From: a virus
IMG/VR virus record: IMGVR_UViG_3300027690_000123
Coordinates: 49,991-113,990 of that record
DNA: 64,000 nt
Direction: 5' to 3' (one strand)
Shown: positions 34,796-52,021 of the stretch, piece after piece
Layout: each line of letters opens with the position of its first letter
How positions within the stretch are numbered: position 1 is the stretch's first letter
Notes under the pieces: generated by a model
Databases searched by the model: none
What the model was told of the DNA's origin: nothing
Seen by the model: only the letters and a program-made list of their open reading frames with translations
Translations under genes and position numbers: made by a program

Positions 34796-35380
34796 ATGCT
34801 GATCATCGACCTTGAAAAAGCGGCCTATAAACTCCAGGGCCGAACGGACTTCCAGGGTTTAAACATTTCGATTGAAAACCGAAAGGGGTCGGTTCGCCGC
34901 GGGGTGGATAAAGATGGTCACGAATGGCAGACCAAGATGAAACATGCCTACGGGTATATCCGCCTTTCTGATGAGGTTCGCCGTAAGGGGGCCGACGGTG
35001 ACCATGTCGATTGCTTTATCGGGCCTTCCCGCGGGTCTGAGCGGGTTTTCGTGGTGCATTTGAACCGGGCAGACAATGAAAAGTTCGATGAGGATAAAGT
35101 GTTTCTCGGTTTCGACTCCAAGGATGAGGCCAAGGCTGCTTTTGATGCCAATTACGACAAGGTGGGACAACGGCTCTACGGCGGCATGACTGAGATGGAC
35201 ATGTCTGCATTCAAGCAGCGCCTGGCGGCACGATCCAAGGGGATGATAAAATCGCTCCGGTTCGAGGGCAAGGATTCTCGCCCGGATTCGGGGTTGAAGA
35301 AATCTTTGGCTGCGGATTTGATGCACGTTTTGATGGTACCTGGCCGCCCTATTTTTGCGTCTAAACGCGAAAGTAATTGA
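34796..35380 (+). CDS. InPase (phage polyvalent-protein inorganic-pyrophosphatase-like) domain protein
   Basis: ISIENRKGSVR...MKHAYGYI...GADGDHVDCFIG...FDEDKVFLGF. Confidence 0.82.
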   Translation: MLIIDLEKAAYKLQGRTDFQGLNISIENRKGSVRRGVDKDGHEWQTKMKHAYGYIRLSDEVRRKGADGDHVDCFIGPSRGSERVFVVHLNRADNEKFDEDKVFLGFDSKDEAKAAFDANYDKVGQRLYGGMTEMDMSAFKQRLAARSKGMIKSLRFEGKDSRPDSGLKKSLAADLMHVLMVPGRPIFASKRESN

Positions 35381-35384
35381 TTAC
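35371..35384. promoter_or_regulatory. Palindromic motif copy (AAGTAATTGATTAC)
   Basis: Overlaps the InPase stop, ahead of the ART gene. Confidence 0.7.
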
Positions 35385-35400
35385 GTTGATGAGGGATAAG

Positions 35401-38313
35401 ATGCAGCATTTCATCTACGTCGATTTGGTAAAAGCACATGTCAAAGCTCATTTCCGTCGTGATCCGAAAACCGGCAAACTGCTGTTCATCAAGGATTACG
35501 ATTCCAAAGTTCATGGCAAGGCAGATCTTGAGTTTCACCAGGGCCATCAGGTTAGGGTGAACAACCCCCGGAGCAAATTCCACGGCCAGGTGATGACTGT
35601 CCGCCATTACTCCGACAAGTACAATGTCGTGCGTTTAAATATCCCCGGGAAAAACCATACCGCCGATTTTGAGCCCCATCAGTTGGAGCATCATACGCCG
35701 GTAGCCGGCAGCGCCTCGCCGGCGACACCTCCGCCGGCTAAAGCCATGACGTTGGATGATGCCAAGACTGCGTTGGGGTTGGCTGGGATCTCTTTTGCTT
35801 CTGCGGAAATGGCCCACGAAAGAAAGCGGGTCGAATCGATGGATGCAGCCAAGCTCAAGGCCAGGATCTCCAAGATCAAAGAGAGCCAGAAGCTCTACAA
35901 TTTCATGCGGGCGTTGATGGAGTGGGGTACCGCCGATAAGCGGGAAGTCGCCAAAGACATCGAAAAGGAATTGATCAAGCGAGCGGAGGATAAGAAGGCT
36001 GCTGCGCCGGCAGCTAAACCGGTAACCAAGCCGCCAGCCACCCCGCCGGCGGTTGCAAAAATCACTTTCGATCCTGGGGATAGGGTCCGAATCAGTAATC
36101 CCCGCAGCAAGCATCACGACAAGGAGGGTGTGGTCACCTCCTTTTCCGACAAGTACAACGTGGTCCGATTGAAACTCGATGACGGTTCCTACACGGATGT
36201 GAGCCCGGCTTCTGCAGTTAACCTGTCGGGGAACAACCAGTCAGCTCCGGCGGCACAACCAGCTCCTGAACCGGAAAAAACTCCCGAACCTCCGAAGGCT
36301 CCCGAACCTCCGAAGACTGCGGCGGATTTTCCGCATGACAAAGCGGCTGCCTGGAAATACGCCAGCAACGATCAACGGTCCTTGGCCCGGGTCACGGGGA
36401 TGGTCCCGCTGGACGACAAAGCGGCCGAATACATCAAGAAAAATCTTCAGAAAATCACTGCGAAGGCTGGGACGACGAATGTACCTTCCTCCGGTTACAG
36501 AGCGAGCAATGACAGGTGGTATGGGGTCAAGACCCGAGGTGGGTACACCATCCCGAAATATGTGAATGAGTATTTGAATTCGGATTGGCGTACCACAGGC
36601 GATATCATGACCGCTTTCCGTCTTGATGTTAAAGGCGACAAGCCTATTTCCGATACGGCGATTGGTTTCATCCAACGCGGAAAAGAGGACTGGGAAAAGG
36701 CTGGCTACGATTATGTTAAAATCGAGGAAGATCTCAAGGAACTCGGCAAGCTCATCGAGGAAGCGGTTTCGAAAGAAACAGCCAAACAGCAACATTCATT
36801 GCTTGCGGTAGATTTTATGCTTGAGAATCTCGCCCATTCTTTGCGGATAAAAAATACTGGGCCTGATTCGCATCAGGTCAAGCCGTCTGAGTTCATGAAA
36901 ACAATGATGGAAAAATTTACTCCGGATATGAAAGTCTCCGAGTTCTTGGACCACTATACCAAGTTGAATGCTGATGATCTGCTTGATCTAAAATCGGTCA
37001 AGGAGCTTTTTCACGCTTATGCCGGCCCCGGTTTTCAAGGCAATCCGGAACATCTCACCATGAGGGATGTAACCGATGGCTTGACTCGTTTTATGGGGAG
37101 AGCGCGCAAGATCGCTTGGACTGGGAGCCCTGCTGATGATATTGAAATGCGGGGTTTTCTCAATGTGATGAAAGAACGTAGCAGTGCAGTTCGATATCTG
37201 CATGAAAAATTTGGTGTCGAACTGGCGACTATTATCAAAGATAGGGGCTTTTCCGGGGATAACGATTCAATGACTTCCTTTATTGCATCCGGCGGTGTTG
37301 GAGCCCCACCTTTTGCCAGATGGTCCAATTTCCGGGTTATAGAGCCGGGAATGGTTACTTACCCTCAGAAAAAAATATCAGACGAAATTCTCAAGAGAAT
37401 CAAAAACAGCGACATCTTGCGAGATCAGTGGGCGGCGAATTATGTCACTGTCGTGGGACAGGCTAACTTGACGAAAAATTATAACCGGCCGTTTAAAAGC
37501 CGGGTTTTTCCGAGAGGTTTGATTCAAGATCAAGGCCCGCGAGCGGTTGGGATGAAAATTGCCCGACAAAGCGGCAAAGTGGATGACATCGCCGATAGTA
37601 TGTCCAAGCGGTATTGGAAAGAGGTCGAGAAACAGAAAAAGCTCAAGGCATCGGGGCAAAAAGGAGCCGACCCGGCGGATCGAAGTGACCCACCGCCGGA
37701 TTACTTGGGCTGTACGTTCAAATCCGTGGATGACAAGACGGCCAATTTTCTCCGAAAAAAGATTGAAAAGGCCTGGGATAAAGATGTGCATGGCGGGTTC
37801 TTTTTCAAAATCCATGGGATCTATCAAATCGGCGGCATGGATCATCACGGTAAATACAAAAAGATTGAGAAAGATCGTGACAACGTCATGTATGGCTACC
37901 ACTCGACCAATTTCCAAGCAGCCGCATCGATTGTGAAGTCGTCTTATCGGGCTGGCGGCGGGATGCTCGGCGACGGGGTTTATGTTACGGATGTGAGTTC
38001 CAAAAGCGCACAATATCTTTTGGGCAACTGCAACGTAACCCGGCGTCCGGGGACTCGGGGCGTCTTTCTGATGAACAAGGTTTCTTTGGGCAAAGTCCAT
38101 GACAAGAGCTATGGGGCTCCGAATTCCAATCCCCACGAAACTCCCAGTCTCGACAAAGCGGATACGGTTTTTGCTCCCAAAAACAAGATGGTTCCGGGTT
38201 ATTCGACAAAGGTGTTGAACGATGAACATGCGGTCAAGGATGCCAATGCCGTCATTCCGATGTATTGGGTGGATTTGGAATTAACGGATCGTTCCGGCAA
38301 AACTAACCCGTAA
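35401..38313 (+). CDS. Multidomain protein with a C-terminal PARP-like (H-Y-E) ADP-ribosyltransferase
   Basis: YHST (H at 37900), GDGVYVTD (Y at 37981), NDEHAV (E at 38224), FLMNKVSLGK; two KOW-like repeats and P/A linkers at the N-terminus. Confidence 0.8.
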   Translation: MQHFIYVDLVKAHVKAHFRRDPKTGKLLFIKDYDSKVHGKADLEFHQGHQVRVNNPRSKFHGQVMTVRHYSDKYNVVRLNIPGKNHTADFEPHQLEHHTPVAGSASPATPPPAKAMTLDDAKTALGLAGISFASAEMAHERKRVESMDAAKLKARISKIKESQKLYNFMRALMEWGTADKREVAKDIEKELIKRAEDKKAAAPAAKPVTKPPATPPAVAKITFDPGDRVRISNPRSKHHDKEGVVTSFSDKYNVVRLKLDDGSYTDVSPASAVNLSGNNQSAPAAQPAPEPEKTPEPPKAPEPPKTAADFPHDKAAAWKYASNDQRSLARVTGMVPLDDKAAEYIKKNLQKITAKAGTTNVPSSGYRASNDRWYGVKTRGGYTIPKYVNEYLNSDWRTTGDIMTAFRLDVKGDKPISDTAIGFIQRGKEDWEKAGYDYVKIEEDLKELGKLIEEAVSKETAKQQHSLLAVDFMLENLAHSLRIKNTGPDSHQVKPSEFMKTMMEKFTPDMKVSEFLDHYTKLNADDLLDLKSVKELFHAYAGPGFQGNPEHLTMRDVTDGLTRFMGRARKIAWTGSPADDIEMRGFLNVMKERSSAVRYLHEKFGVELATIIKDRGFSGDNDSMTSFIASGGVGAPPFARWSNFRVIEPGMVTYPQKKISDEILKRIKNSDILRDQWAANYVTVVGQANLTKNYNRPFKSRVFPRGLIQDQGPRAVGMKIARQSGKVDDIADSMSKRYWKEVEKQKKLKASGQKGADPADRSDPPPDYLGCTFKSVDDKTANFLRKKIEKAWDKDVHGGFFFKIHGIYQIGGMDHHGKYKKIEKDRDNVMYGYHSTNFQAAASIVKSSYRAGGGMLGDGVYVTDVSSKSAQYLLGNCNVTRRPGTRGVFLMNKVSLGKVHDKSYGAPNSNPHETPSLDKADTVFAPKNKMVPGYSTKVLNDEHAVKDANAVIPMYWVDLELTDRSGKTNP

Positions 38314-38326
38314 AAGAGGCTGAAAA

Positions 38327-38623
38327 ATGATGCTCGTTAATCATTCGAATTATTTCGATTACAATGGCCAGATTTACTGTGAAAAACTCATGGATGTGGT
38401 CCGGGCCGATGAGCAGCATTACGAGAACTATTGCCTGAATTGCCGTTTTTTCAATGGGCACCTGTTCGGCGAGGGGGTGGAGTGTCTTTACGAGGACTCC
38501 ACGGTCAAGGACGGTGAGGAAGTGATCGGTGTAACCGATCCTTTCGAGTACCTGGATAAGCGTCGCAAAGCACGTTCTATTGAAAGAGAACGCAAGGCAA
38601 CCGATTTCACCGTAAAGCGGTAG
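38327..38623 (+). CDS. Hypothetical protein
   Basis: ORF filling the gap; CLNC..C motif. Confidence 0.6.
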   Translation: MMLVNHSNYFDYNGQIYCEKLMDVVRADEQHYENYCLNCRFFNGHLFGEGVECLYEDSTVKDGEEVIGVTDPFEYLDKRRKARSIERERKATDFTVKR

Positions 38624-38632
38624 CGAGGGGCC

Positions 38633-39328
38633 ATGTCGCACGTCAAGCAATACACCCGGGTCAGCCACGGCAAAATGCAGACCGTTCGCGCCTATGATGA
38701 TAAGCGTTCGCGGTCTGGAAAAAAGGTTTCACACCATGTCGTGACGATTGACAAGGGGATGGAAAAGATCAGGGAAACGGTTACGGAGCTGCTGCGGACG
38801 GATGCGGGCGTCAAGGAGCTGGAGGCCAAGGTCAAGTCCGGCGGCTTTTTAAAGTCTTTGCCCGAGGTGGCGGCGTTGTATGGGGTCGAACAAGGCGTCC
38901 ACCATCCCTATCGGGATACCTTCGATCATACGATCCAGGTCATAAAACACTTGCCAGCGGATGCCAGCGATAACGTCCGCTGGGCGGCGTTGCTGCATGA
39001 TATCGGCAAATCAACGACCCAACAGGTACATCCGGATCGGGGCATCGTGTTCGATGGCCATGAATACGCTGGCTACAAGATGGTGGGCAAGGTTCTCGAT
39101 CGCCTGGGGTTCTCCAAGGATGATCAGGCAGAGATCAAGCATCTGGTCCTTCATCATGGCAACCTGCGGACCAAATTCCTTCGATCGGACGAAAGCGAGG
39201 CTCGGGAATTTATGGCCCACAAGCATTTTGAGACTTTGCTGGCGTTGCATCGAGCGGATGTGAAAGCGTCCGGCCGGGATCCGAAAGAGGTGCTCGATGC
39301 CATCGATGAATTAAGGCAAAAAGATTAG
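38633..39328 (+). CDS. HD-domain phosphohydrolase (CCA-enzyme/poly(A) polymerase-type HD)
   Basis: HHPYRDTFDHT, RWAALLHDIGK, FDGHEYAG, LVLHH, LHRAD. Confidence 0.85.
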   Translation: MSHVKQYTRVSHGKMQTVRAYDDKRSRSGKKVSHHVVTIDKGMEKIRETVTELLRTDAGVKELEAKVKSGGFLKSLPEVAALYGVEQGVHHPYRDTFDHTIQVIKHLPADASDNVRWAALLHDIGKSTTQQVHPDRGIVFDGHEYAGYKMVGKVLDRLGFSKDDQAEIKHLVLHHGNLRTKFLRSDESEAREFMAHKHFETLLALHRADVKASGRDPKEVLDAIDELRQKD

Positions 39329-39379: not shown

Positions 39380-41539
39380 ATGTTGATCGATCTGAAAAAC
39401 ATCAAGGTTGTACCCTTGGCTGAATTTGATTTGGAAAAAGCGGCCTTCAAGCACGGGTACTACACCCATCTGGTGCCAAAAAAAGTCGTTGGCAAGGATG
39501 GAGTTGAGCGGATCCACTGGGTCAATCCGGACAAGGACAAAAAGACCAAGCTGGCCCGAGTGTCTCATCATCGGGAGGGTAATGAAGCCGAACACCATGC
39601 CGAGATCAGTCAGAAGCATATAATTGATCCGAAGGATTTGCAGAGGTTTTCCGAGGGCGACAAGGTGGTTGTATCCTGGGGCGCTCATAAGGGCCGTGAA
39701 GGGGTTTTCCGCGGGGATTTGGCCGGTCCTTCGCCGAGGGTGTCGGTTGCGCTTTTCAATGCGAAAACCGGCAAGCATGAAGCCAAGACGATGAACATCA
39801 ATTACATCAAGTTGGTTCACCGGGCGGATGAAGAAACCAAAAAGGTAATCGAGCGCAAGACCGTCGAGGCGACCAATCTGAAAGGGGAAACGATTCTGGT
39901 CGATCGTGGGGATTTTGAAAAATACTACAAGGACCGGGACAAGAAAAAGACGATTCAAGAGCGGGTGGCCGAGGAAGCCAAGCGCCTGGTAGTCGGCGGC
40001 GTGTACCGGCGGCCGGATGGTCGGATGATCGGGGTTGAATCGTCGCTGAAGGTCGGGTCTTCGACGCAATATTCTATCAGGGTGGTTGACCGAAGAAAAA
40101 AAGCGGACAAGGTGGGAAAGGTCGACGAAGACCGGCTGCAGGGAATCTTGGACAAGCAGAAATATGAGCGGGTGCCCCGGCCGACGATCACCAAAGAGGC
40201 GAAAACTTTTGATGAAGACGACGGCACCTGGAAAAAATGGGTAACGGACAAGCCGCTCAGTGCAGATCTGGAAAGCGGCGAGCTGCATCGTAAAGGGCAT
40301 TTCGGTTACGATGCAAAAACGGGGATGCGGGTTCCTACAGAAGCCGATGAGGACATTGCCCGTAAAATCCTTGCCGAGCATTGGTCGATGCTGGAACGCA
40401 CGGTAAACAACCGCGTAGCGAAATATCCCACGGTGCCGGAGGGTGAAATCAGCCCAGCCGACATCATCGATGGTTTGACCAAGGCGGTGGCCAGTTACGA
40501 ACCGTTGCTCGATACCGGGGGCGGGATTGAGGGGCGCCTCCGGAAGTATGCCGACTCCTACGCCCGGAGTGAGGCTGAAAAGATCCATGAGCGGGAAACG
40601 GCGACGGTGCGGGATGACTTGGTCAAGGAGGATGGGGATACCACCGATGCTCCGATCACGTCGGCTGTCGATAAGGCGGCTGTCAAAGAGATGATCGGGG
40701 ATCTCAACGAGATCATGGCTTCTGCCTTTGTTTCCAAACAAGATGCGATGATCTTGGAGGAAGGCCTTGCCGATGAGGCAGACATGATGAGTTGGCTCTA
40801 CGGGGATGAAAAGATCCTCGATGTCATGAAGCGGTGGACCGGCATCGGTGAGTTTGAATCGACCATCACCAAAAAGGAAGCTGCAGCCGAACTGACCGGT
40901 TTGGCTTACAACCCGGCGACGATGGAGCCTTACGCGACTTCGACGATCGAAACGCTGCTGCTTCCTCGGGAGCTTAACCGAATTATTGAGGCTTTCCAGA
41001 ATGAGGGGATGCTCTATCCCGAGTTCATGGCGACGCTGAAAAAAGATGTCAACCTTCGGAATAAGTTGGCCCGGAATCGAAAAATCCTTCCTGTCCATCC
41101 GAAGGATGAGAAGGTCATCGCCGTTGTCCGCGAAAAGGTCAAAGAGTCCAAGGGTCGGGCGATCTATGCGGCCCAATTGATTCGCCGCGGGGTACCGCCG
41201 CGGTATGCGCCGGCGGTGATGCAGCTTGGTGATCGGATCATGGCCGGCCGAAGTGCTCCGTATGATTACGCCAAGCAGCTTCCCCGTGAGGTGTGGAAAG
41301 ACGGGGCGAAGGCACTGACGCAGTGGTTCAAAGATCAATTGCCTACATCGGTGTTTGCTGGCAAACGAGCTGCAGCATTCAATTTGCCCCAGCGGTTCGA
41401 TGTTGAGGGTCCGATAAACAGGGCAATCGCTGATGAAAAGCGGCTGAAGGAAGAAAACGAGCAGGCGGCCAGCCGCGAATATTCCAAGATGGGGAAAGAG
41501 CCCCCGGCGCCTCCAAAGCCCACTAAGGTAATTATCTAA
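39380..41539 (+). CDS. 719-aa protein with a KOW-like motif and a sigma70 region 2/4-like segment
   Basis: EGDKVVVSWGAHKGREG; DIIDGLTKAVASYEP...RKYADSYAR; ITKKEAAAEL. Confidence 0.5.
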   Translation: MLIDLKNIKVVPLAEFDLEKAAFKHGYYTHLVPKKVVGKDGVERIHWVNPDKDKKTKLARVSHHREGNEAEHHAEISQKHIIDPKDLQRFSEGDKVVVSWGAHKGREGVFRGDLAGPSPRVSVALFNAKTGKHEAKTMNINYIKLVHRADEETKKVIERKTVEATNLKGETILVDRGDFEKYYKDRDKKKTIQERVAEEAKRLVVGGVYRRPDGRMIGVESSLKVGSSTQYSIRVVDRRKKADKVGKVDEDRLQGILDKQKYERVPRPTITKEAKTFDEDDGTWKKWVTDKPLSADLESGELHRKGHFGYDAKTGMRVPTEADEDIARKILAEHWSMLERTVNNRVAKYPTVPEGEISPADIIDGLTKAVASYEPLLDTGGGIEGRLRKYADSYARSEAEKIHERETATVRDDLVKEDGDTTDAPITSAVDKAAVKEMIGDLNEIMASAFVSKQDAMILEEGLADEADMMSWLYGDEKILDVMKRWTGIGEFESTITKKEAAAELTGLAYNPATMEPYATSTIETLLLPRELNRIIEAFQNEGMLYPEFMATLKKDVNLRNKLARNRKILPVHPKDEKVIAVVREKVKESKGRAIYAAQLIRRGVPPRYAPAVMQLGDRIMAGRSAPYDYAKQLPREVWKDGAKALTQWFKDQLPTSVFAGKRAAAFNLPQRFDVEGPINRAIADEKRLKEENEQAASREYSKMGKEPPAPPKPTKVII

Positions 41540-41624: not shown

Positions 41625-42122
41625 ATGGATTTAAACAAGATGCGGGATGATGTTCTGGAAAGCCTTCGGATCAAGTACAAGGAATCTCCGGAACTTTTGA
41701 GTGACGGTGCTAAGGCGATCATGGCTATTCTTTCAACGACCAAATACATGGATTTGTACGACGCCAAGGGGGACATGTTCGCGGACATGTTCCGCCGGGT
41801 CGAATTGGCTGAACAATTACTGGTTGAATACGAAAACAAAACCTACAAGGGGCCGGGGGATGTCAGTAATATGATTTGCCAGCTCATCCCGATCGAGATG
41901 GTGGAAACAGCCGAACATTATACCCACTTAAACGATCTTGTGTACCGGATGCAAAAGGTTTTGGATCGTAACATCTGCCTGGGTATTCGGGAATATGAGA
42001 AAGCGAACAATTTGTCTCCGTTGGATCTGAGCCATCCACTTGATCATCTTGCCGAGGATCTTGCTCTTGCTGGGTATAAAGATACTGATGAAGACCTGCT
42101 TGCTGATGACGGTGAGGGGTAG
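41625..42122 (+). CDS. Hypothetical protein
   Basis: ORF downstream of a TTGACG-17-TACAAA promoter-like sequence (41545-41573). Confidence 0.65.
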   Translation: MDLNKMRDDVLESLRIKYKESPELLSDGAKAIMAILSTTKYMDLYDAKGDMFADMFRRVELAEQLLVEYENKTYKGPGDVSNMICQLIPIEMVETAEHYTHLNDLVYRMQKVLDRNICLGIREYEKANNLSPLDLSHPLDHLAEDLALAGYKDTDEDLLADDGEG

Positions 42123-42123: not shown

Positions 42124-42336
42124 ATGCCGATCGTGGAATTAGAACACAACCTTCAGGATTTTGAACTCGAGGAAACCCTCGAAAAAGCACTTGGTACCAT
42201 CCGTCAAAAGATCCAGCGGCCGGCTCGTAAATTCAGGCAACCGGCCCTGGAGGAACTGGCCCGGACGGTGACTGGTCAATTTGATGGTCAGATGAAAAAG
42301 ATGACCAAGCGGATCGAGGGCGTCATCCAGGGATAA
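42124..42336 (+). CDS. Small hypothetical protein
   Basis: ATG 42124, MPIVELEHNLQDFELEETLEKA... Confidence 0.55.
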   Translation: MPIVELEHNLQDFELEETLEKALGTIRQKIQRPARKFRQPALEELARTVTGQFDGQMKKMTKRIEGVIQG

Positions 42337-42378: not shown

Positions 42379-42627
42379 ATGAGCGAAGCGGAAAAAGAGT
42401 TCACCTTCGGGGCAGAAACGGTCAGAGCGATATTTGAGGAAATCCGGGAGAACCACCGCCGGCTGGATCGTTGCCCCGGGCCTCATGATTTTGGGGTGAC
42501 CGACCAAAGCGGTTTCAATTTCCGTCAGAAATGCACCTGCAGCAAATGTGGGGGTGTTCTCGATGGAGTGGCCCTGCGTTGGTATTTGAAGGGTTTGGAA
42601 CACGGGAAAAAGCTGCATGCTGAATAA
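42379..42627 (+). CDS. Small Cys/His protein
   Basis: CPGPHDF...CTCSKCG. Confidence 0.6.
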   Translation: MSEAEKEFTFGAETVRAIFEEIRENHRRLDRCPGPHDFGVTDQSGFNFRQKCTCSKCGGVLDGVALRWYLKGLEHGKKLHAE

Positions 42628-43456
42628 AGACCAAGTTGCCGAAATTGCCCGGATCATCCGCGAACATGTGGGTGTCGCTATTTATTATCTGACCGGGTCA
42701 CCGCCGGCGGGGATCAATGTCGATAAGCTGCGGGCGGCTGGAATTATTGGTCCGGATGTTCCCGACAGTGTCATCGCCGATGCCTACCTGTACGGGGTGC
42801 TGTCTTCGCTCGACCCGAAGGTAGCTTCGGCACCGTTTTCGGTGATCAAAGAAACCCTTCGGAACCTGCCGCTCAGTCCGATCGAAAAAGCAACGGTTGA
42901 ATGGCTCAACACCTCGGCTGCGCTTTATTGCCAGGGCTTGGGGAACCGGATTGAGACAGCGACGATGCGGATCATCCACGATGCTGCCAAAGAGGCAGTC
43001 ATGCGGGACACGATCCAAACCACGATGTCGGCGGCAACCCGGCATCGTAAAACCCGGGGTGAGATGGTCACCTTGCTTCGACGGGCGACAGAGGATGTTC
43101 AGCGGGATTGGCATCGGATCGTCAACACCGAGTTGCATAGCGCCAGGACACATGGCGTGGCCCATGGGATAACAAAGCAGTTCGGGCCTGATGCCTATGT
43201 CGTCGTCCGGCCCCATCCTGATTGCTGTGACCTGTGCCGGGAGGCTTTTCTTTCCCGGGGAGTGCCCCGGGTGTTCAAGTTGGCGGACCTGGCTGCGCGG
43301 AGCAATATCGATCGCACGGCGGCTGAGATCCGGCGGGCGCCCGGGATGCCGCCGGTTCATCCTCATTGCTTGTGTGAGATGTCGTACTTCAATCCGAAGC
43401 TTCACGAATTCGACAAAGAAGGGCGGGTCGTTTTCAAACAGTTCAAGGGGGATTAA
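42617..43456 (+). CDS. MuF/SPP1 gp7-like head morphogenesis protein
   Basis: RDWHRIVNTELHSA; CCDLC; PPVHPHCLC. Confidence 0.8.
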   Translation: MLNKDQVAEIARIIREHVGVAIYYLTGSPPAGINVDKLRAAGIIGPDVPDSVIADAYLYGVLSSLDPKVASAPFSVIKETLRNLPLSPIEKATVEWLNTSAALYCQGLGNRIETATMRIIHDAAKEAVMRDTIQTTMSAATRHRKTRGEMVTLLRRATEDVQRDWHRIVNTELHSARTHGVAHGITKQFGPDAYVVVRPHPDCCDLCREAFLSRGVPRVFKLADLAARSNIDRTAAEIRRAPGMPPVHPHCLCEMSYFNPKLHEFDKEGRVVFKQFKGD

Positions 43457-44289: not shown

Positions 44290-45192
44290 ATGATGGAAAA
44301 CCAAACGCCAATTGGGTTCCACGAGGACGGGTCATTCCGGTTCCATGTTCCCATCGATCTGAAAAAAGGGGACGATGGCAAGACATGGATTGAAGGGGTC
44401 GCCAGCGTTGAAAGAGAAGACATCGCCGGCGAAACGGTTATCTTGGCCGGGATGGATCTGTCCTATCTTTTGAGCCGCGGCTATTTCAACGACAATCATG
44501 CCAAGACCACCGATGCAAAGGTCGGCGTCCCCACCGAAGCGAAAGTTACGCCCAATGGGTTGCAGGTCAAAGGGTATCTGTTCGACACACCCCGGGCCAA
44601 AGGCATTGTTGAGTTGGCCGAGGCCCTGCAGAAATCCGGCAGCGAGCGCCGCCTGGGTTTCAGTGTTGAAGGAAAGACCCTCAAGCGTGACGGCAAGATC
44701 ATCAAACAGTGTTGGGTCAAGGATATTGCCATCACCGCCGAGCCGGTCAACCCCTACACCTACCTCGATGTCATCAAAAGCATTTCCCATGATATCGCCG
44801 TCAATGGTTATGTCGATGATCTGGAGGAAAAGGCCCAGGCCCCGAATATAGTAGAGCCTGAGCCGTTGGGCTACTGGGACCGCCTGGAACAGATTTTTTC
44901 CAGGTGCTTGTCAAAGATCTTTGGGGGCAAAGCTCAATCCGATTTGGAAAAGATGATGATGGCCGGAACCCAGCGGCCCGTCGAGGATGGGGGATCAGCC
45001 CTTCGGAAAGAGGCAGTCGAGGAAGGGGTGACGAATCTGGACATCCCGCAAGGTGAAACGAAAGAGCTAACCGAGGATGAAGCCGTCCAATATCTGATGC
45101 GACGTGGTTATTCCGAGGAAAACGCAAAACGGGTCGCAAATATGATTTTCAATACCGAAAATCGGAAGTTCTTGGCAACTGTCGGCCTATAA
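44290..45192 (+). CDS. Prohead (maturation) protease
   Basis: IEGVAS...DIAGE, NDNH, GFSVEG, AITAEPVN; position before scaffold and MCP. Confidence 0.88.
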   Translation: MMENQTPIGFHEDGSFRFHVPIDLKKGDDGKTWIEGVASVEREDIAGETVILAGMDLSYLLSRGYFNDNHAKTTDAKVGVPTEAKVTPNGLQVKGYLFDTPRAKGIVELAEALQKSGSERRLGFSVEGKTLKRDGKIIKQCWVKDIAITAEPVNPYTYLDVIKSISHDIAVNGYVDDLEEKAQAPNIVEPEPLGYWDRLEQIFSRCLSKIFGGKAQSDLEKMMMAGTQRPVEDGGSALRKEAVEEGVTNLDIPQGETKELTEDEAVQYLMRRGYSEENAKRVANMIFNTENRKFLATVGL

Positions 45193-45209: not shown

Positions 45210-45998
45210 ATGACGGAACAAAAAACAACGATGCCGGAAAAAGCTTTCCTGGAATCGCTTGACGCTCTGGAGAATTTGGCAAAGGGGATGGTCCCTGTTG
45301 CGGATGATCTGGATGCGGCTGCCGGTGAGGATCTGGAAAAAAGTCAGTCGGCCGACGGCCAGGGGGAAGCTGCTGCTGACGAAGCACTGGTCAAGGGGGA
45401 TGATGGCGAGGACGATGATGACCAGGACAAAGACGAAGGCGATGAAGACACCGAAAAAGCCTTGTCCGGGGATGCCCTCTCCTTTGCCGAGGAAGCCGCT
45501 GCCGGTTCCGAAAATATCCGAAAAGCCATTGAAGTGAGTGACTTCCTGGCGGATCTGGTGGACCGGGTTGGCGATGCCATCGATGGCATTCGTCAAAACC
45601 TCGATACCCGCGTCGAAACCATCGAGAAAAGTCTGTTGACGGTATGTGAGGCCAATCAGTCCGTCGTCCAGGCTGTGGCCGAAACCCTGCGGAAGTCTTT
45701 CCAGGCAGTTTCGGAAAAGACGGACCAGCAAGCTGAAACCCTGCGGAAGTCGCTGGATATCCTCAACGATGAGTTGAGCAGGACTCCTGCCCGGGCTCCC
45801 AAGGCCAAAGTCTCCGTGCTGGAAAAAGGTTTCAACGACGAAGAAAAGGGGATCGAAATGTCGAAAGCCGACATCCTCAAGTCTTTGTCCGACATGTTCG
45901 AGCGTGGTGAACCGGGTGTGACTTCGCTGGATGTGATTCGATTCGAGTCCAGCGGCGTGTTGCCGCCCCACATTCAGAAGAAGTTTCAAGGCCGGTAG
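45210..45998 (+). CDS. Acidic coiled-coil scaffold-like protein
   Basis: D/E-rich, coiled coil, many x-x-K-[SA] motifs; between protease and MCP. Confidence 0.6.
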   Translation: MTEQKTTMPEKAFLESLDALENLAKGMVPVADDLDAAAGEDLEKSQSADGQGEAAADEALVKGDDGEDDDDQDKDEGDEDTEKALSGDALSFAEEAAAGSENIRKAIEVSDFLADLVDRVGDAIDGIRQNLDTRVETIEKSLLTVCEANQSVVQAVAETLRKSFQAVSEKTDQQAETLRKSLDILNDELSRTPARAPKAKVSVLEKGFNDEEKGIEMSKADILKSLSDMFERGEPGVTSLDVIRFESSGVLPPHIQKKFQGR

Positions 45999-46055: not shown

Positions 46056-47489
46056 ATGAACGATATCATCACACTGGCTCAATACGAAGATATTCACACC
46101 GCCGGTTTCACCAGCATGCGCGAAGTTGAGGAACTCAACAAAGCCCTGGAAGCCGGCCATGACCGTCCGGTGTCCACCGGCGGCGGCGCTTTGCGCGTGG
46201 AGTCCCTGGAAGCCAGCCTCAAAGTGCTGACCCATCAGGCCAAACACTGTGCTTTCTGGCAGCGCGTTCCCAAACTACCCGCTTACTCGACCGTCGAGGA
46301 ATACAATCAGTTGACGGCTGTTGGCGATGAGTCCGGAGCCTTCATTCCTGAAGGTACGCTGCCCGATACGGTGGATTCCACCTACAACCGCGCAACCAGC
46401 CTGGTGAAGTTCCTGGGTACGACCCGCAGCGTTTCTCACCCCATGACCCTGGTCCGCACCAACATCGGTGATGTGATGGCCCAGGAAAATGCCAACGGCA
46501 TCCTGTGGATTCTCAAAAACCTGGAATGGGGCCTATTCAACGGCGACGCCGACATGTGTTACCTGGGTGCGGCTACCGATTCGACCCACCGTGAAGGTGT
46601 GGAGTTCAGCGGTCTGGAAAAACAGATCAACGCCGCCAACGTGGTCGATCTGAAGGGCGCTCCTCTGAGTGAGGGTGCGTTCTCCTATGCGGCTCAGTTG
46701 GTCGCCAGCAATTACGGTGTTCCGTCGGATTGTTTCTTGAGCTTCGCCGCTCATCAGGCATTCTGCGACACCATGCTGCCCAAAGAGCGCGTACCGCTGC
46801 CCACCCAAGGCGGTGGCTATACCGTCGGTGCCAATATCCCCGATGTGAACACCCCCTTCGGCAAGGTCAACCTCAACCCCGATGTGTTCCTGAACTCGGG
46901 CAAAACTCCTCCGTCCGCTGCGACCAGCACCAATGCTCCGACGGCTCCTGCGACCTTTGCCGCCGCAGCTATGGCTGGCACCGATGGTGTGTGGGCGACC
47001 CATGGTGGCGCCGGCACCTACAATTACGCCGTGACCGCCGTGAACCGCTACGGTGAGTCGGCTGCCGTGAATGCTGCTGCTGCCGTGACCGTGGCTGCTG
47101 CCGATCTCGGAAAGCACGTTCCCTTCACCATCACCAACGCCGCCGCCGTGTCCGTGGCGCCCGAGTATTTCAACATCTACAAGACCCTGCCGGGTGGCAC
47201 CACGAAATACCTGGTCGGCCGTATCCGTGCCAACAGCGTGGCCAACGCCGGAACGACCACCTGGGACGATACCGGCCTGTGGATGGCTGGCACGACCAAG
47301 GCTTTTGTGGGTGAGCTGAGCCCGCAAGTCATCTCCGTCAAACAGCTTGCTCCGCTGATGAAAATGGATCTGGCGACCTTGGCTCCGGCCTACCGTTGGA
47401 TGATCCTCTGCTACCTGACCTTCATCCTGTACGCCCCCAAGAAATGGGTGCAGTTCATCAATGTCGGTGGCAGCCAACTGGCGGTGTAA
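46056..47489 (+). CDS. Major capsid protein (SPO1/Twort-like)
   Basis: NKALEAG..GGALRVESL, AYSTVEEYNQ, VKFLGTTRSVS, LEWGLFNGD, EFSGL. Confidence 0.92.
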   Translation: MNDIITLAQYEDIHTAGFTSMREVEELNKALEAGHDRPVSTGGGALRVESLEASLKVLTHQAKHCAFWQRVPKLPAYSTVEEYNQLTAVGDESGAFIPEGTLPDTVDSTYNRATSLVKFLGTTRSVSHPMTLVRTNIGDVMAQENANGILWILKNLEWGLFNGDADMCYLGAATDSTHREGVEFSGLEKQINAANVVDLKGAPLSEGAFSYAAQLVASNYGVPSDCFLSFAAHQAFCDTMLPKERVPLPTQGGGYTVGANIPDVNTPFGKVNLNPDVFLNSGKTPPSAATSTNAPTAPATFAAAAMAGTDGVWATHGGAGTYNYAVTAVNRYGESAAVNAAAAVTVAAADLGKHVPFTITNAAAVSVAPEYFNIYKTLPGGTTKYLVGRIRANSVANAGTTTWDDTGLWMAGTTKAFVGELSPQVISVKQLAPLMKMDLATLAPAYRWMILCYLTFILYAPKKWVQFINVGGSQLAV

Positions 47490-47777: not shown

Positions 47778-47804
47778 GGGGCGGTGAAATGCCGCCCCTT
47801 ATTT
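47778..47804 (+). terminator. GC hairpin with T-tail
   Basis: GGGGCGG-TGAAATG-CCGCCCC-TTATTT. Confidence 0.55.
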
Positions 47805-47835
47805 GAACTGATCAAGCAACTGAAAGGATCTTCTC

Positions 47836-48213
47836 ATGCCGAAAATTCATACGTCTGTGTTGGGTGGGCAAAAACTTCTGGTCGGCAATGAAATCGTGGA
47901 ATTCGACGCCGACGGTTTCGCCGATGTCACCGACGATATTGCGGCTACCGTTCTTCCGTTGAAAGGCTTTTCCAAAGTCAAAGAGGCTCAAGACGATGGA
48001 GGGGTGGTGTCGGATGATACCGGCGGTGCATCGGATGAAAAAACGGATGATGGTGCGAATGCTGCCGGTCCATTGAATGAAGCCGGCGCAGCCAAGGAAG
48101 AAAACACCCAGGACACAGCAGGGGCCACCGGGCGTGTTCCAGCCATCGACGATGAGGCGATCAAGAAAACCCGGGGGCGTAAACCGAAAAAGGACGCCGA
48201 AACCAATGAATAA
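47836..48213 (+). CDS. Acidic head-region protein
   Basis: VEFDADGFADV N-terminal domain plus a low-complexity tail. Confidence 0.65.
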   Translation: MPKIHTSVLGGQKLLVGNEIVEFDADGFADVTDDIAATVLPLKGFSKVKEAQDDGGVVSDDTGGASDEKTDDGANAAGPLNEAGAAKEENTQDTAGATGRVPAIDDEAIKKTRGRKPKKDAETNE

Positions 48214-48616
48214 CCTTGATGAAGCATTGGTGAGATTGAACGAGCTGGAACCCGGCCTGCGTTCTTTAGATACCCTTTTTGCCCTTGGCGAAGTGATCAA
48301 GGGCGAAAAGGGGCACCACAATGCGGGGGATTTTGATCTTACCGTGTGGGAGCACAGCATGGACGGGTTCTCTGTTGGGGCTATCGTCAGGGCCAGAATG
48401 GACGGGAAGCCATTTCCGAGTCTGAATCAGTCTCAAAAAAAATGGATTCTATGCTGCAAGGGACGAATGAAAATTGTCTATGGCGAGAACATTAAGACCA
48501 TGGGCGAGGGGGAGCGGCTGACGATCCCGTCCAAGACGCCCCATGAGATCTATCCGATAACCGAGGATTGCTCGGCGATCATCGTTACGGTGCCTGCCGA
48601 TCCCGGGATGAGATAA
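48206..48616 (+). CDS. Cupin-fold protein
   Basis: CCKGRMKIV...GERLTIPSKTPHEI. Confidence 0.65.
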   Translation: MNNLDEALVRLNELEPGLRSLDTLFALGEVIKGEKGHHNAGDFDLTVWEHSMDGFSVGAIVRARMDGKPFPSLNQSQKKWILCCKGRMKIVYGENIKTMGEGERLTIPSKTPHEIYPITEDCSAIIVTVPADPGMR

Positions 48617-49024
48617 ATGTCTATGACTGACCAAAGATCCGTTGATTCATGGACTTCCTTTGCTGAATGGCGAGGTACTGTCAAAACAGCCCTTGATTTC
48701 ATCAAAAGCAGCCTAAAACGGCTTGAGGCAGAAGACCAGGAACAATGGGAAACCATTGAGCAAGTCCGGGGGATGCTGGAAAAGGCCCGGGATCGGTGTG
48801 ACCAACTAAGCCAGGGCCGGGCCACGAAAGCTGATGTTGATGCTTTGCGTGGCGAGTTGGATAAAAAAGCCAGCGCCAAGGATTTTGACGAGCTGAAAAC
48901 GGAGGTCAACGCTCAAAGCAAGGTCCAAATCAAGCAGGGCGTGACCTTGCTTTTTTATGGGACCATCGGCGGAGCCTTGTTCACGATCCTCCTTAATATG
49001 GCCACTCACTTTTTTAAAAAGTAG
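48617..49024 (+). CDS. Coiled-coil protein with a C-terminal TM helix (holin-like)
   Basis: Heptad pattern, then LLFYGTIGGALFTILL. Confidence 0.55.
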   Translation: MSMTDQRSVDSWTSFAEWRGTVKTALDFIKSSLKRLEAEDQEQWETIEQVRGMLEKARDRCDQLSQGRATKADVDALRGELDKKASAKDFDELKTEVNAQSKVQIKQGVTLLFYGTIGGALFTILLNMATHFFKK

Positions 49025-49031
49025 GTATGCG

Positions 49032-49769
49032 ATGAAACTGCCGACACCTGAACTGATCACCGGAAATTATCTGTTCGGAATCCCTTTGGTCGATGAAGAC
49101 GGAAACGAGTTGGGGGAGCCGACTATCGAATACTGGATCGGCCAGGGGATCTCCTGGCTTGAAACAGAATTAATGATCCCGATCCAGCCGACCTCGATCC
49201 AAGAAACGCATGACTACTACATCGATGAGTATCAGCAATTTTGCTACCTTCAGCTTTATCAATATCCCGTGATCTCTGTCGAGTCGCTGGTGGCAAGCTA
49301 CGCTGGCCAGGAAATCATGACGTTTCCTGCCGATTGGATCCGGATTTACAAACAGACCGGTCAGCTCCAGCTTGTGCCGACCACCGGCAGCTTGTCGCAA
49401 GTCCTCCTGGGGGCCGGGTCGGGTGTCTTGCTGCCGCTGATCACCGCCCGGTTATCGAATATGCCGCATTTGTTCAATGTGACCTACACGGCGGGTTTCG
49501 CCGAGGGACAGGTGCCCGGGGATATCGTTGACATGATCGCCATGAAGGCGTGCATCGGGTTGTTGAACATCCTGGGCGATATTTTGTTGGGTGCCGGTAT
49601 CGCTTCCCAAAGTCTCAGCATCGATGGGTTGAGCGAAAGCATCAATACGACCCAGTCTGCGGAAAACTCCGCTTACAGCGCCCGCATCCGTCAGTATGAA
49701 CGTCAAATCAAAGCCCAGTTGCCGAATCTGCGGGCACGATACAAAGGGCTCAGATTGGCGGTGGCATAA
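49032..49769 (+). CDS. Head-tail connector/neck protein
   Basis: LYQYPVISVESL; VTYTAGF..VPGDI; SQSLSIDGLSES. Confidence 0.7.
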   Translation: MKLPTPELITGNYLFGIPLVDEDGNELGEPTIEYWIGQGISWLETELMIPIQPTSIQETHDYYIDEYQQFCYLQLYQYPVISVESLVASYAGQEIMTFPADWIRIYKQTGQLQLVPTTGSLSQVLLGAGSGVLLPLITARLSNMPHLFNVTYTAGFAEGQVPGDIVDMIAMKACIGLLNILGDILLGAGIASQSLSIDGLSESINTTQSAENSAYSARIRQYERQIKAQLPNLRARYKGLRLAVA

Positions 49770-50428
49770 TGGCAGGCCGTGTTGATTTCAAAGTCGGATC
49801 CTTCGATGCCCTGGTCGATAAGCACGGGTACTACCTGGAGCATTATCAGGCCTTGCAATGTCCTTGCTACGACCTGCAAACCGGCCATCCCGACCCGACT
49901 TGCTTATATTGTGAGCATGGCTGGCAGTACTATGGCCGGCAGGAAATCCAAGGGATCATCACAGGCCTCCAGACGGACAAACAGTTCATCGAGCCGGGTG
50001 GATTGTTGCTTGGCACGATGCAGCTCACGGTCAAGGCCGAGGTGGATCTCGGGTATCATGATCGCATCGTCAACCGGAAGTCGTTGATTGCGTTTTCCGA
50101 ATTGCTCATCCGCGGGACCGGGGAAACAGACCGGGCCCGGTTTGAGATGGTGGATATTCTTCGGGTGGTCGGCCCCGGCGGGGTGGTGTATGTGCCGATC
50201 CTTGATTACGAAGTTTCCGGCGGGCTGATCCGGTGGACGGGAACCGGGCAAGCGCCGGCAGCCGGCAGCCGTTATTCGGTTGCGTACCGGATGCACCCGA
50301 CATGGCTTGTGTTGAGCCATGTTCATGTCGTTCGCGACACTCATATCAAATTCCGGCAGGTTGAGCCAATGCACCACCGGCTGCCGATTCAGGCAATCTG
50401 CAAACTTGAATATCTTTGGGAGGGGTAA
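49769..50428 (+). CDS. Neck/head-completion protein
   Basis: CPC...PTCLYC.HGW; position after the connector. Confidence 0.65.
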   Translation: MAGRVDFKVGSFDALVDKHGYYLEHYQALQCPCYDLQTGHPDPTCLYCEHGWQYYGRQEIQGIITGLQTDKQFIEPGGLLLGTMQLTVKAEVDLGYHDRIVNRKSLIAFSELLIRGTGETDRARFEMVDILRVVGPGGVVYVPILDYEVSGGLIRWTGTGQAPAAGSRYSVAYRMHPTWLVLSHVHVVRDTHIKFRQVEPMHHRLPIQAICKLEYLWEG

Positions 50429-50431
50429 ACC

Positions 50432-52021
50432 ATGGGTCTTTTTGATGAAGCATTGGCGAAAAGCCTTGAAACAGGGGATACAAAAGATCTTGCCCAGGTG
50501 GTGTTTCCCGGGGCCGAAAGTTTGGAAAAGGCCCATATCAAAGCCCATTTCCGGTTGAATCCCAAAACCGGGAAACGAGAATTCATCAAAGACTACGATG
50601 ATGCCCGGCACAAAGATGAAGTACATGTCTCGTTTCACAAAGGGCACAAGGTCAAAGTGAACAATCCGAAATCCAAGCACCATGGCAAGGTGATGGAGGT
50701 GACTGGTTACTCGGAAAAATACGATGTCGTGCGGGGTAAAATTGATGGCGAGAAAAACTCTGTCGATTTTCATGCAGACCACTTGGAGCATCATGGCGAC
50801 AAGGCTGCTGCCCCTGATGCAAAAGAGGACAAAGAGCCGACCGGGAAAATCTCCGCCGAGCTGAAAGCGAAAATCGATAGCCTTTCTCCGACTGAAAAAT
50901 TCACTGTCGTCAATGATTACTTGGGCCTTCGGGTTCATGCGGGTGATAAAAATTTCCGCGCCGACAAAGATGGTGGGACCGATCGGTTCCTGGCCCATGT
51001 CAATGTCAGAGATTTTCCAATCAAAAAGATCGAAGAAGCGGTCGATCGTATGTTGGACCAAAAAGATCGGGGAAAAGTTGAACCACCGAAGCGGGATTAT
51101 TCCAAAGGGGTTACGGTTGTCGTTACCAAGGTGGAGAGACTGCCTGGTGGCCAAGGCGACCGTGTTGCTTTCAGCTATGACGATGGCACTCCAGTAGAAG
51201 ATAAAATCATGGCGGGTTGGTCCCACCGACATGGGCCCAGCAGCAGTGATCCCAATCCGGCTGCTATCAGGACCATGAGCACCTACAAGGTAGGGGAAAA
51301 ATACAAGCTCACCCGCGACAATCGTGGAATGTGGGCCGAACCCCATCACACGAACAAGGTGGCCGAGGGTAAAGCCCCGACAGATACAGGGCCCAAGAAA
51401 GACCTTGATGTTAAAACTACTCCCGAAAAATTGAAATATGACAAATTCGGTGCCCATGTGAAATCGGGCGTGAGCAGCGTTTCGGATGCCGAAAAGATTC
51501 TGATGGAGCACGGTTTCACCTGGGACAAGAGCGACAAGTCTGGATCGCTTGGAGGCGCCATCTATGAAAAAGACGGCAAGGGGGTTGCCCACTTCGATGC
51601 AGCGGGCAAAACCTTGACGATCTATGAGCCCAAGGAAAAATCGGATTCCAAGCCTGACCAATCAAAGGCAACAGGTGCCCAAAAACAATGGGGGACGGAA
51701 AAGGAAATTGCGGCGCCGGATGCTGGCATCGGTCCAAAGAGTTTCGAGACGCGGTTTCCCCACATCAAAGAGTTTTTTGAACAGGCTGAGAATACCCTTG
51801 AACTCGGGAAGTTGAAAAAACAGGCCGCCAAATTCGCCGCGAGTAACCCCGAGGGGTGGAAGTGGGGGCCGATTGACCACTTTCACAAGGAACACGCTGA
51901 GACTTTGAGGCAGCTTGGTCGATCCGGTCACAAACAAACGGCCGCAGCAGAACACCGGATGGATACTTTACTTCGAACCCGGGATTCATCCGGGCGGGCA
52001 ACGGCGAGAAGGCGTTCATAA
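50432..52021 (+). CDS. 529-aa protein sharing its N-terminal module with the PARP-like protein
   Basis: LEKAHIKAHFRLNPKTGKREFIKDY...VNNPKSKHHGKV...YSEKYDVVR...HLEHH. Confidence 0.75.
   Translation: MGLFDEALAKSLETGDTKDLAQVVFPGAESLEKAHIKAHFRLNPKTGKREFIKDYDDARHKDEVHVSFHKGHKVKVNNPKSKHHGKVMEVTGYSEKYDVVRGKIDGEKNSVDFHADHLEHHGDKAAAPDAKEDKEPTGKISAELKAKIDSLSPTEKFTVVNDYLGLRVHAGDKNFRADKDGGTDRFLAHVNVRDFPIKKIEEAVDRMLDQKDRGKVEPPKRDYSKGVTVVVTKVERLPGGQGDRVAFSYDDGTPVEDKIMAGWSHRHGPSSSDPNPAAIRTMSTYKVGEKYKLTRDNRGMWAEPHHTNKVAEGKAPTDTGPKKDLDVKTTPEKLKYDKFGAHVKSGVSSVSDAEKILMEHGFTWDKSDKSGSLGGAIYEKDGKGVAHFDAAGKTLTIYEPKEKSDSKPDQSKATGAQKQWGTEKEIAAPDAGIGPKSFETRFPHIKEFFEQAENTLELGKLKKQAAKFAASNPEGWKWGPIDHFHKEHAETLRQLGRSGHKQTAAAEHRMDTLLRTRDSSGRATARRRS

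Follow-up and report, generated by a model that had tools for sequence, protein, structure and literature searches.

A Lys-type candidate prohead-protease site and a hairpin–KOW module on putative capsid cargo of a phage with an SPO1-type head

Experimental accounts of how phage heads are loaded with enzymes for later injection exist for only a few systems (T4, P1 and the phiKZ-like phages), and for the widespread 'polyvalent' effectors hardly anything is known of packaging and processing signals. Here we describe a candidate for such a signal, one that lends itself to testing, in the head-gene block of a 64,000-nucleotide stretch of viral DNA (IMG/VR record IMGVR_UViG_3300027690_000123, positions 49,991 to 113,990; hereafter the window). 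It comprises a short motif, L-x-K-[SA], and a hairpin–KOW module that follows it. The two are found at the N-termini of predicted enzymes encoded among the head genes, and the motif recurs at the predicted maturation site of the major capsid protein (MCP). Genes and their products are named by first nucleotide in the window, related loci by handles beginning with L and proteins returned by the module search by handles beginning with P; a vertical bar in a motif marks a cut.

In T4 the internal proteins IPI–III and the ADP-ribosyltransferase (ART) Alt have short propeptides that end at the gp21 consensus, which is also used on the capsid, the scaffold and the protease, and a capsid targeting sequence (CTS) of 10 residues loads foreign proteins (PMC9026906). 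For P1 an N-terminal segment of DarB of at most 30 aa suffices for capsid loading; the MCP is cut at E120|S121, and no N-terminal consensus common to the Dar proteins was found (PMC9024508). In the giant phages phiKZ and SPN3US, ejection or inner-body proteins, host-destined enzymes included, are trimmed at S/A/G-x-E by the prohead protease (PMC9026906; see also PMC5694885). Polyvalent proteins are predicted by Iyer, Burroughs, Anand, de Souza and Aravind (2017) to be packaged and delivered with the DNA (PMC5512222), and ARTs encoded beside head genes are likewise predicted to be packaged (Iyer et al. 2022; PMC9503650). For polyvalent proteins the 2017 paper proposes processing by embedded zincin-like peptidases (PMC5512222). 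A term search of it found 'KOW' absent, 'prohead protease' once and, in the passages shown, 'hairpin' for other structures; by this search we found in it no description of the hairpin treated here, of a KOW module or of prohead-protease sites as joints.

The window belongs to a single virus sequence of 119,703 bp (∼120 kb). Late genes on the + strand fill its right half. Judged by gene content, the part at ∼34.8–52 kb is a head block of SPO1 type, with homologous genes for MCP, protease and scaffold standing in order and, in the MCP, a conserved N-terminal 'LNK[AS]L.AG' box. Besides metagenomic contigs, the close relatives are three prophages, which lie in genomes of Desulfosarcina, Desulfobacterales and Desulfobacterium. 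Since related head modules lie inside large bacterial contigs (L021, L022, L023), the phage group is, on this genomic evidence, temperate, and its hosts are Desulfobacterales, which are sulfate reducers. L021 is a 2.6 Mb contig of a Desulfosarcina metagenome-assembled genome, L023 a Desulfobacterium chromosome of 5.77 Mb and L022 likewise a bacterial contig.

The link between the motif and head maturation begins with the MCP (46056..47489, + strand; phrog_752, E 3e-112), which is of SPO1 type and about 46% identical to Herelleviridae MCPs. Its predicted maturation cut, EELNK29|A30LEAGH (K29 at nt 46140–46142), aligns with 'DALNKALEAGH' of SPO1 Gp6.1 (PDB 9vel), and K29|A30 aligns with 'VVK24|S25FQ' of staphylococcal phage phi812. 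The deposited phi812 chains have 463 aa (5lii) and 439 aa (9row), and alignment offsets put the start of 9row at S25, from which we infer that S25 is the mature N-terminus. The predicted site in the window rests on this comparison of chains, because a search of the available literature found no experimentally determined MCP cut site for SPO1-like phages. HK97 gp5 is likewise cut after Lys (K103|S104). The MCP of the distant phage L019, which is 38% identical, reads 'DELNK|ALTVGYG'.

Other head-assembly proteins carry the same type of site. The prohead protease (44290..45192, + strand; phrog_1028, E 5e-47) has I-D-L-K-K|G near its N-terminus, and a C-terminal segment, SDLEK|MMMAGTQRPVEDGGSALRKE (LEK|MMMAG..GGSALRKE), that mimics the MCP N-arm EELNK|ALEAGHDRPVSTGGGALRVE. 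This copy (window 44941–45030, protease aa 218–247, against 46131–46220, MCP aa 26–55) includes the cut site, spans the first ∼30 residues of the mature MCP N-arm and is kept in L001, L002, L019 and Bacillus phage YungSlug; it may recruit the protease into the prohead. Of all ORFs of at least 50 aa in the genome, no more than three contain the box K[ASM][LM][EM][AT]G: those of the MCP, the protease and, in its leader ('EALAK|SLETGD'), the 50432 protein. The scaffolding protein (45210..45998, + strand; phrog_15087) has at least five sites (DLEK|S, TIEK|S, TLRK|S twice and ILK|S), and hydrophobic-x-K-[SA] sites are also dense in the scaffolds of the Herelleviridae phage YungSlug (11) and of L019 (9). 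In the portal protein (26033..27760, + strand; phrog_12, E 1e-55) E-L-K-K|A at aa 26–30 (K29 at nt 26117–26119) is a candidate protease site, where the orthologue in prophage L023 reads T-L-S-K-A.

The motif is thus found at the predicted MCP maturation site, in the capsid-like protease segment, in the scaffold and the portal, and at the N-termini of six head-block proteins. The first-pass annotation of the window had listed DLEKA (34796 and 39380), DLVKA (35401), ALAKS and SLEKA (50432), ELKKA (portal), ELNKA (MCP), and DLEKS and, twice, TLRKS (scaffold), all of which are present; it had also proposed a comparison with tail and island proteins, and here frequencies are not equal. The head block has 13 copies of L.K[SA], where shuffled sequences lead one to expect 4.2; the corresponding figures are 4 and 3.0 for the tail genes and 17 and 12.1 for the replication arm. 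The form [DE]L.K[SAM], whose definition was drawn from the MCP and the protease and not from the cargo, lies within the first 45 aa of 7 of 31 head-block proteins and of 0 of 94 others (Fisher p 3e-5), so that not a single tail, island or replication protein carries it N-terminally; in the head block the small ORF at ∼42124 has it in addition. Orthologues of 30–80% identity at 10 related loci, the three Desulfobacterales prophages among them, keep the motif. Codons differ among its copies; conservation is therefore at the protein level, and a DNA-level repeat is excluded.

Residues 9–106 of the 35401 protein and 31–121 of the 50432 protein are 57% identical (BLAST E 1.5e-31) and define an N-terminal module of ∼95 aa. 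It has three parts: a leader ending D-L-x-K-[AS], a His/Lys-rich β-hairpin (HVKAHFRRDPKTGKLxFIKDYD) and a KOW/SH3-like barrel; it is basic and His-rich (pI 9.3–10.4, 10–13% His). A second KOW-like copy lies in 35401 at about aa 227–296 (E 7e-10), or about aa 219–290 in the layout of the whole protein. The N-terminus of the 38633 protein, MSHVKQYTRVSHGKMQTVRAYDD, that is M-S-HVKQYTRVSHGKMQTVRAYDD, is a hairpin without a leader: profile–profile comparison (hhalign) with a 49-sequence module alignment gives a probability of 92% and E 6.6e-7. Both relationships, the region shared by 35401 and 50432 and the kinship of the 38633 start, had been noticed at first pass from the letters alone and are borne out, and the profile search proposed with them points to a rare family: of 1.84 billion proteins it returned 76 representatives, including a few false ones, with polyvalent-type domains attached. 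These domains are PARP (9), SNF2/ResIII (4), InPase (2), ddrB-ParB, LPD1, ART-PolyVal and DUF5661. The module is N-terminal (start at aa 36 or before) in about 45 of the 76, in proteins of 130–1116 aa, and proteins of the effector repertoire are all basic (pI about 9).

Only one column of the 49-sequence alignment is invariant, namely the motif Lys that precedes the hairpin. Across 52 hairpin copies Lys is present in 52, A, S or G follows it in 51, and D-L-x usually precedes it; His is also found in 52 of 52, a count fixed by the search pattern with which the copies were collected. Five proteins considered as homologues (P0054, P0070, P0072, P0074 and P0075) were rejected as false positives, since they carry β-propeller/NHL-type repeats (FRVNPxTGxRxxVSDFGD). 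The hairpin resembles a propeller blade turn, the look-alike repeat being FRV[ND]PxTGxRxxxSDFGD.

Pfam, PHROGs and NCBIfam hold no named family for the module and no model that covers the hairpin. Pfam KOW (PF00467) matches 7 of the 76 family members (best E 1.9e-10) and, at E≤0.01, neither window copy. A tblastn search of 50,697 phage records returned zero matches to the family, and a word-index search with the hairpin region only 2 proteins. In an AF2 model of 50432 aa 1–135 (pLDDT 62 overall, about 74 over the barrel) the leader is helical and is followed by the hairpin and a barrel of SH3-like form; pLDDT falls below 50 at aa 24–35, around the predicted cut, a region modeled as flexible. 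In local Foldseek comparisons the barrel matches Spt5 KOW2–3, NdhS, PsaE and NusG with an rmsd of 1.1–2.3 Å over 51–60 residues and E-values of only 0.01–0.1; model and matches agree on a five-stranded SH3-like barrel.

One homologue lies elsewhere in the genome, outside the window: a 230-aa protein adjoining the DNA polymerase (G000:C1:27696-28388, minus strand; L014:7699-8388), identified by hairpin–KOW homology (E 3e-11). It has a Cys-rich, Zn-ribbon-like N-terminus, an Ala/Pro/Glu-rich linker, an AT-hook-like KKRGRPRTKK and, at the C-terminus, a degenerate hairpin plus KOW-like barrel; about ten module representatives share this architecture. The copy has no K-[AS]-H, which argues that the module has a function independent of packaging.

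Between the portal and the protease lie genes for the InPase, the PARP protein, a Cys-rich protein, the HD protein, a 719-aa protein of unknown function, small ORFs and the MuF-like 42617, all on the + strand. The InPase-domain protein (34796..35380, 194 aa; Pfam PF18823, E 5e-42) has PHROG matches that include minor head protein and DarB-like families. Its leader, MLIIDLEK|A, has a predicted cut after K8 (nt 34817–34819), and orthologues keep [IVNT]-L-[EV]-K-A. Further conserved sites, GMIK|S and GLKK|S, lie near the C-terminus, and G-[MV]-I-K-S ends the InPase domain in all orthologues. The last ∼30 aa (GLKKSLAADLMHVLMVPGRPIFASK..) match the C-terminal tail of a 1122-aa fusion protein in L006, a tail that starts L-K-K-[SA]. 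An internal 'DLEKALRKAHFRR' / 'CCCDLEKALRKAHFRRDPKTGK' unit and a KOW barrel connect the InPase with an SNF2 helicase in L006, L022 and P0023, and the window InPase gene looks like a remnant of such a fusion. L009 has two genes instead, the second of which starts with leader plus unit. The fused and split loci are L006:3573-6941 and L009:6499-9938.

The PARP-type ADP-ribosyltransferase (35401..38313, 970 aa; PF00644, 38 bits) begins with a leader of 11 residues (MQHFIYVDLVK) and a predicted cut after K11 (nt 35431–35433), followed by the hairpin (aa 12–35), the KOW/SH3-like barrel (∼aa 45–100) and the PARP domain (aa 794–912). Its companion, a Cys-rich protein of 98 aa (38327..38623), is conserved: orthologues adjoin PARP or HD genes in L007, L013, L022, L023 and Bacillus phage YungSlug. 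The HD-domain phosphohydrolase (38633..39328; CCA-enzyme-like HD; Pfam HD, E 2e-10; also NCBIfam) begins M-[SA]-H-[VI]-[KR] in 5 of 5 orthologues, and after removal of Met its N-terminus equals the predicted post-cut residue of the other proteins. The motif Lys is thus missing only where no cut would be needed, which suggests that its role lies in processing and not in folding, and that it is important for [AS]-His to stand free at the N-terminus. The 38327 and 38633 genes share a reading frame, with a stop codon and 9 nt between them; the gap is 0–12 nt in all relatives, which suggests translational coupling.

The 719-aa protein (39380..41539) has no match in Pfam, PHROG or NCBIfam and no assigned function. 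Its leader ends EFDLEK|A (K20, nt 39437–39439) and is followed by a divergent hairpin (AFKHGYYTHLVPKKVVGKDGVERIHWV); LEKA[AGL]FKH.YY, with the hairpin-like FKH.YY...GKDGV.RIHWV, is kept in 5 of 5 orthologues. Its KOW-like segment is weak (hhalign 22%), too weak for 39380 to count as a full member of the module family, and it is not the portal, which is the phrog_12 gene at 26033–27760. Two small genes follow, one for an acidic protein of 165 aa (41625..42122) that starts M-D-L-N-K|M and has orthologues in L001 and L021, the other an ORF of ∼70 aa missed by the gene finder (42124..42336), whose translation has E-T-L-E-K|A-L at aa 18–23; its orthologues in L022 and L023 keep [TV]-L-[ET]-K-A-L.

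The 42617 protein (42617..43456) had been called MuF. Pfam Phage_Mu_F (PF04233) does not match it even at E≤1, and PHROGs and NCBIfam likewise give nothing; an AF2 model (pLDDT 62) compared by Foldseek with AFDB clusters finds 'phage head morphogenesis domain' and 'SPP1 gp7 family' proteins (E 6e-12 and 2e-10), at 25% identity and TM-scores of only 0.38–0.40. Together with the motifs RD[WF]HR, C..C and HP.C.C in the family alignment A6, this marks a distant MuF/SPP1-gp7-like head morphogenesis protein: the assignment stands by fold and not by Pfam family.

The remaining module protein, 50432 (50432..52021, + strand, 529 aa), occupies a variable slot among the neck genes. Its leader (aa 1–33) contains the MCP-site mimic EALAK10|SLETGD and SLEK33|A (nt 50528–50530), and is followed by the hairpin (aa 34–57), the KOW/SH3-like barrel (∼aa 64–120) and a C-terminal part of 400 aa without assigned function, for which tblastn against the 50,697 phage records, Pfam, PHROGs and NCBIfam return nothing. 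In relatives the slot lies between orthologues of 49769 (a virion structural protein family) and 52024. Among five phages (the window, L001/L005, L002/L008, L004 and L021) the first 128 aa are kept at 50–81% identity and the C-terminal parts are unrelated, except for a 63-aa segment common to the window and L021. In the distant phage L019 no gene lies between the two orthologues. This slot with its exchanged C-terminal parts, the HD protein without a leader and the fusion or fission of the InPase and helicase genes amount to natural experiments on the signal.

Window proteins have one recognizable enzyme domain each; P0064, P0076 and P0010 are multi-domain. In other uncultured phages units of cut site plus hairpin recur at the domain joints of portal-adjacent polyvalent effectors. 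L003 has them 11 times in five consecutive post-portal genes (SNF2, ART-PolyVal twice, DUF5661+InPase), two of which start 'MLLLK|AH' and 'MILLK|AH'; L011, L018 and L019 have them at least seven times around the portal. They are also found in P0063, a ddrB-ParB protein encoded near terminase and portal, and in the InPase protein P0076 ('YIDLEKA', 'YIDFEKAHVK' and 'FIDLEKARVK'). In a cultured member of the Herelleviridae, Bacillus phage YungSlug (L017, MT416612.2, 45369–57938), the genes for portal, protease, scaffold and MCP are immediately preceded by those for a MuF-like protein of 288 aa, a small Cys-rich protein (88 aa) and a 'PARP polymerase' of 870 aa.

On balance we think it probable that the head-block effectors are capsid cargo trimmed at L-x-K|[AS]. 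The set would consist of InPase 34796, ART 35401 and HD 38633, plus 39380, 41625, ∼42124 and 50432. These proteins would most likely be co-assembled into the prohead, trimmed within the capsid by the prohead protease 44290 and ejected along with the DNA. The signal would begin with a short, poorly conserved and mostly hydrophobic leader ending hydrophobic-hydrophobic-[DE]-L-x-K|[AS], a site of the same type as the predicted MCP cut (LNK|A), the MCP mimic of the protease (LEK|M) and the scaffold sites. It would continue with a basic, His-rich β-hairpin starting exactly at P1'/P2' ([AS]-H-V-K-A-H-F-R-R-D-P-K-T-G-K-L-x-F-I-K-D-Y-D) and, in the Desulfobacterales-phage lineage, with the KOW/SH3-like barrel. 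Leader and L-x-K|[AS] together would be the processing signal and possibly the loading signal too. Were the protein cut after Lys, it would lose the leader, whereas hairpin and barrel would stay attached; these are therefore best taken for a retained binding handle and not for an address that is cleaved off. Possible partners of the handle are DNA, the portal, MuF or a host target. In the fused relatives the protease would cut at the joint units and release separate enzymes, each starting with the hairpin. Cleavage, packaging, ejection and a partner for the handle are what we infer from sequence and gene order.

The first-pass annotation had pictured a modular system in which an N-terminal address tags enzymes for the capsid. 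Much of this holds: the motif stands at the predicted MCP site, in the protease mimic and in the scaffold, is N-terminal in the head block only, and goes with a polyvalent repertoire, and the 50432 slot keeps its N-terminal 128 aa. An address role of the hairpin–KOW module looks less likely, given the polymerase-side copy, the leaderless HD protein and a handle that would be retained after the cut. A wider and more tentative idea, which we regard as possible and well short of probable, is that hydrophobic-hydrophobic-D-L-E-K|A plus His-rich hairpin forms a general, hitherto undescribed 'cut-and-keep' code, in use wherever phages have heads of SPO1 type and serving also to divide polyvalent proteins. 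Cuts inside the capsid would free enzymes, each with a newly exposed [AS]-His hairpin; the hairpin would hold the enzyme on DNA, portal or MuF and take it out through the tail, and the leaderless HD enzyme would obtain the same N-terminus by Met removal.

Set beside the described systems, the locus resembles T4 in that basic proteins, an ADP-ribosyltransferase among them, are encoded with head genes and the cargo set varies among relatives (PMC9026906). In silico, moreover, the cargo proteins have in [DE]-L-x-K|[AS] the type of site that is predicted for the MCP (LNK|A) and recurs in the protease (LEK|M) and the scaffold. It differs in the site itself (L-x-K|[AS] against [LI]-x-E| in T4), in its SPO1/Herelleviridae-type head and in having no sequence similarity to the T4 CTS; furthermore, the hairpin, with or without KOW, starts at P1' and would stay on the mature protein, whereas T4 has no retained element. 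With its Lys-ending site and its head genes of SPO1 type (phrog_752, phrog_1028), the predicted window system is an analogue of T4-type capsid targeting and not a member of it. The class of system is a known one; what is new is a site of Lys type in such heads, a hairpin with its start at P1' and the spread over several lineages.

With polyvalent proteins it shares the repertoire of InPase, ART/PARP, SNF2, ddrB-ParB, LPD1 and DUF5661 (InPase and PARP in the window, the others in homologues) and the placement by portal, MuF and terminase (in the window and in L003, L011, L018, L019 and L024). However, the window domains are mostly separate genes and not one giant protein, the class having 2–15 effector domains per polypeptide. 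P1 has a large SNF2-type helicase/methylase cargo encoded next to portal and prohead protease, and the module–SNF2 helicases of window relatives are in the same place; in contrast to P1, a common motif and module are shared among several cargo proteins. The giant phages likewise trim many head proteins at one short motif, but theirs is another protease specificity in another phage group, and no shared hairpin/KOW handle is described there. Herelleviridae (SPO1, phi812/K, YungSlug) have homologous MCP, protease and scaffold, keep 'LNK|ALxAG' in their MCPs and have scaffolds rich in hydrophobic-x-K-S; YungSlug in addition encodes PARP, small Cys-rich and MuF-like proteins by the portal. The window phage differs from them in being temperate, in its Gram-negative Desulfobacterales hosts and in the L-x-K-[AS] leader that the YungSlug PARP lacks.

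Any account has to accommodate what is observed, namely the homology of the modules, the conservation and restriction of the motif, the gene context and the domain repertoire. One that we consider unlikely holds that the module is an ordinary nucleic-acid- or protein-binding domain, borne by late enzymes that act in the producing cell or are never packaged, with L-x-K-[AS] as part of a fold or binding surface. It would explain the hairpin–KOW copy beside the DNA polymerase, where it occurs with the AT-hook-like KKRGRPRTKK, the basic character of the module, and fold matches to KOW, SH3, PsaE and NdhS barrels, among which binders of nucleic acid or protein are common. Yet it is exactly the K-[AS]-H start that this replication-arm copy lacks, and L-x-K-[AS] is present without the hairpin in the InPase, 42124, portal, scaffold, protease and MCP, aligning with the capsid maturation site. 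The Lys, moreover, is dispensable only where a protein naturally begins there (HD), and the attached domains are those of predicted injected effectors. Decidedly unlikely, in our view, is a role of the module after injection, in which it steers enzymes to host RNA polymerase, the ribosome or incoming phage DNA and loading proceeds through the leader or other contacts; this is compatible with packaging and rejects the 'address' role. KOW/Tudor-like domains dock on RNA polymerase and the ribosome, T4 Alt targets RNA polymerase (PMC9026906), and all the fragments predicted from a fused polyvalent protein would retain a hairpin of their own, as though it were needed once the cuts are made. To these may be added the Pfam KOW matches in 7 family members and the local fold matches to Spt5 and NusG KOW domains, the E-values of which are, however, weak (≥0.01), and the hairpin-only units of other lineages have no barrel.

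It is improbable that the module is a virion anchor for external or neck appendages, a role that would suit 50432 especially. That gene is surrounded by genes for neck and tail completion, its slot in all relatives being flanked by the orthologues of 49769 and 52024, and only its first 128 aa are kept, a conserved N-terminus with a variable C-terminus being typical of fibers and decoration proteins. But the module also heads PARP-type ARTs and SNF2 helicases, whose substrates (NAD+, ATP, DNA) are intracellular, and the C-terminal parts have no fiber, Ig-like or carbohydrate-binding signatures. Finally, L-x-K-[SA] could be the chance product of a short and loose motif, leaving only the 35401/50432 paralogy as real. 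The motif has four residues and was picked after inspection, and about 22 copies are expected by chance in a set of 102 predicted proteins (29,807 aa) of the genome; even so, its N-terminal, head-block-only restriction (p 3e-5), its retention in orthologues down to 30% identity, the invariance of Lys in 49–52 homologues and its recurrence in unrelated phage lineages make chance very improbable indeed.

Several observations count against trimmed capsid cargo as the explanation that we favor. The YungSlug PARP protein adjoins the portal and has a hairpin-like MPVQRMVTRDGKTFQTTVWVK start without an L-x-K-[SA] leader, and the polymerase-side hairpin–KOW copy is in a non-head gene. The enrichment statistic rests on a motif that was partly defined post hoc. 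The putative phi812 cut site is deduced from PDB chain length and alignment offset, and confidence in the AF2 model of the module is low to moderate (pLDDT 62). In addition, the head block also has genes that are not necessarily for virion proteins: a lysis-like cluster at 27.8–29.8 kb and 43456, a protein whose best PHROG match is annotated as phosphoheptose isomerase.

The cluster at 27821–29841 encodes small proteins with signal-peptide-like or lipoprotein-like N-termini, between the portal and an 828-aa protein at 30679, and is probably a lysis cassette within the head block. In L006 a lysozyme-like ORF (judged by eye) adjoins the orthologues of 28666 and 29338. The tail sheath gene (53607; phrog_279) follows in the late block on the + strand.

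If the head-block effectors are indeed trimmed capsid cargo, the cut specificity of SPO1-type prohead proteases would be defined, and the virion cargo of related uncultured phages would become predictable from sequence. The signal would also provide a portable tag with which to load foreign proteins into such capsids, and the 'cut-and-keep' code, if true, would explain how polyvalent proteins are processed.

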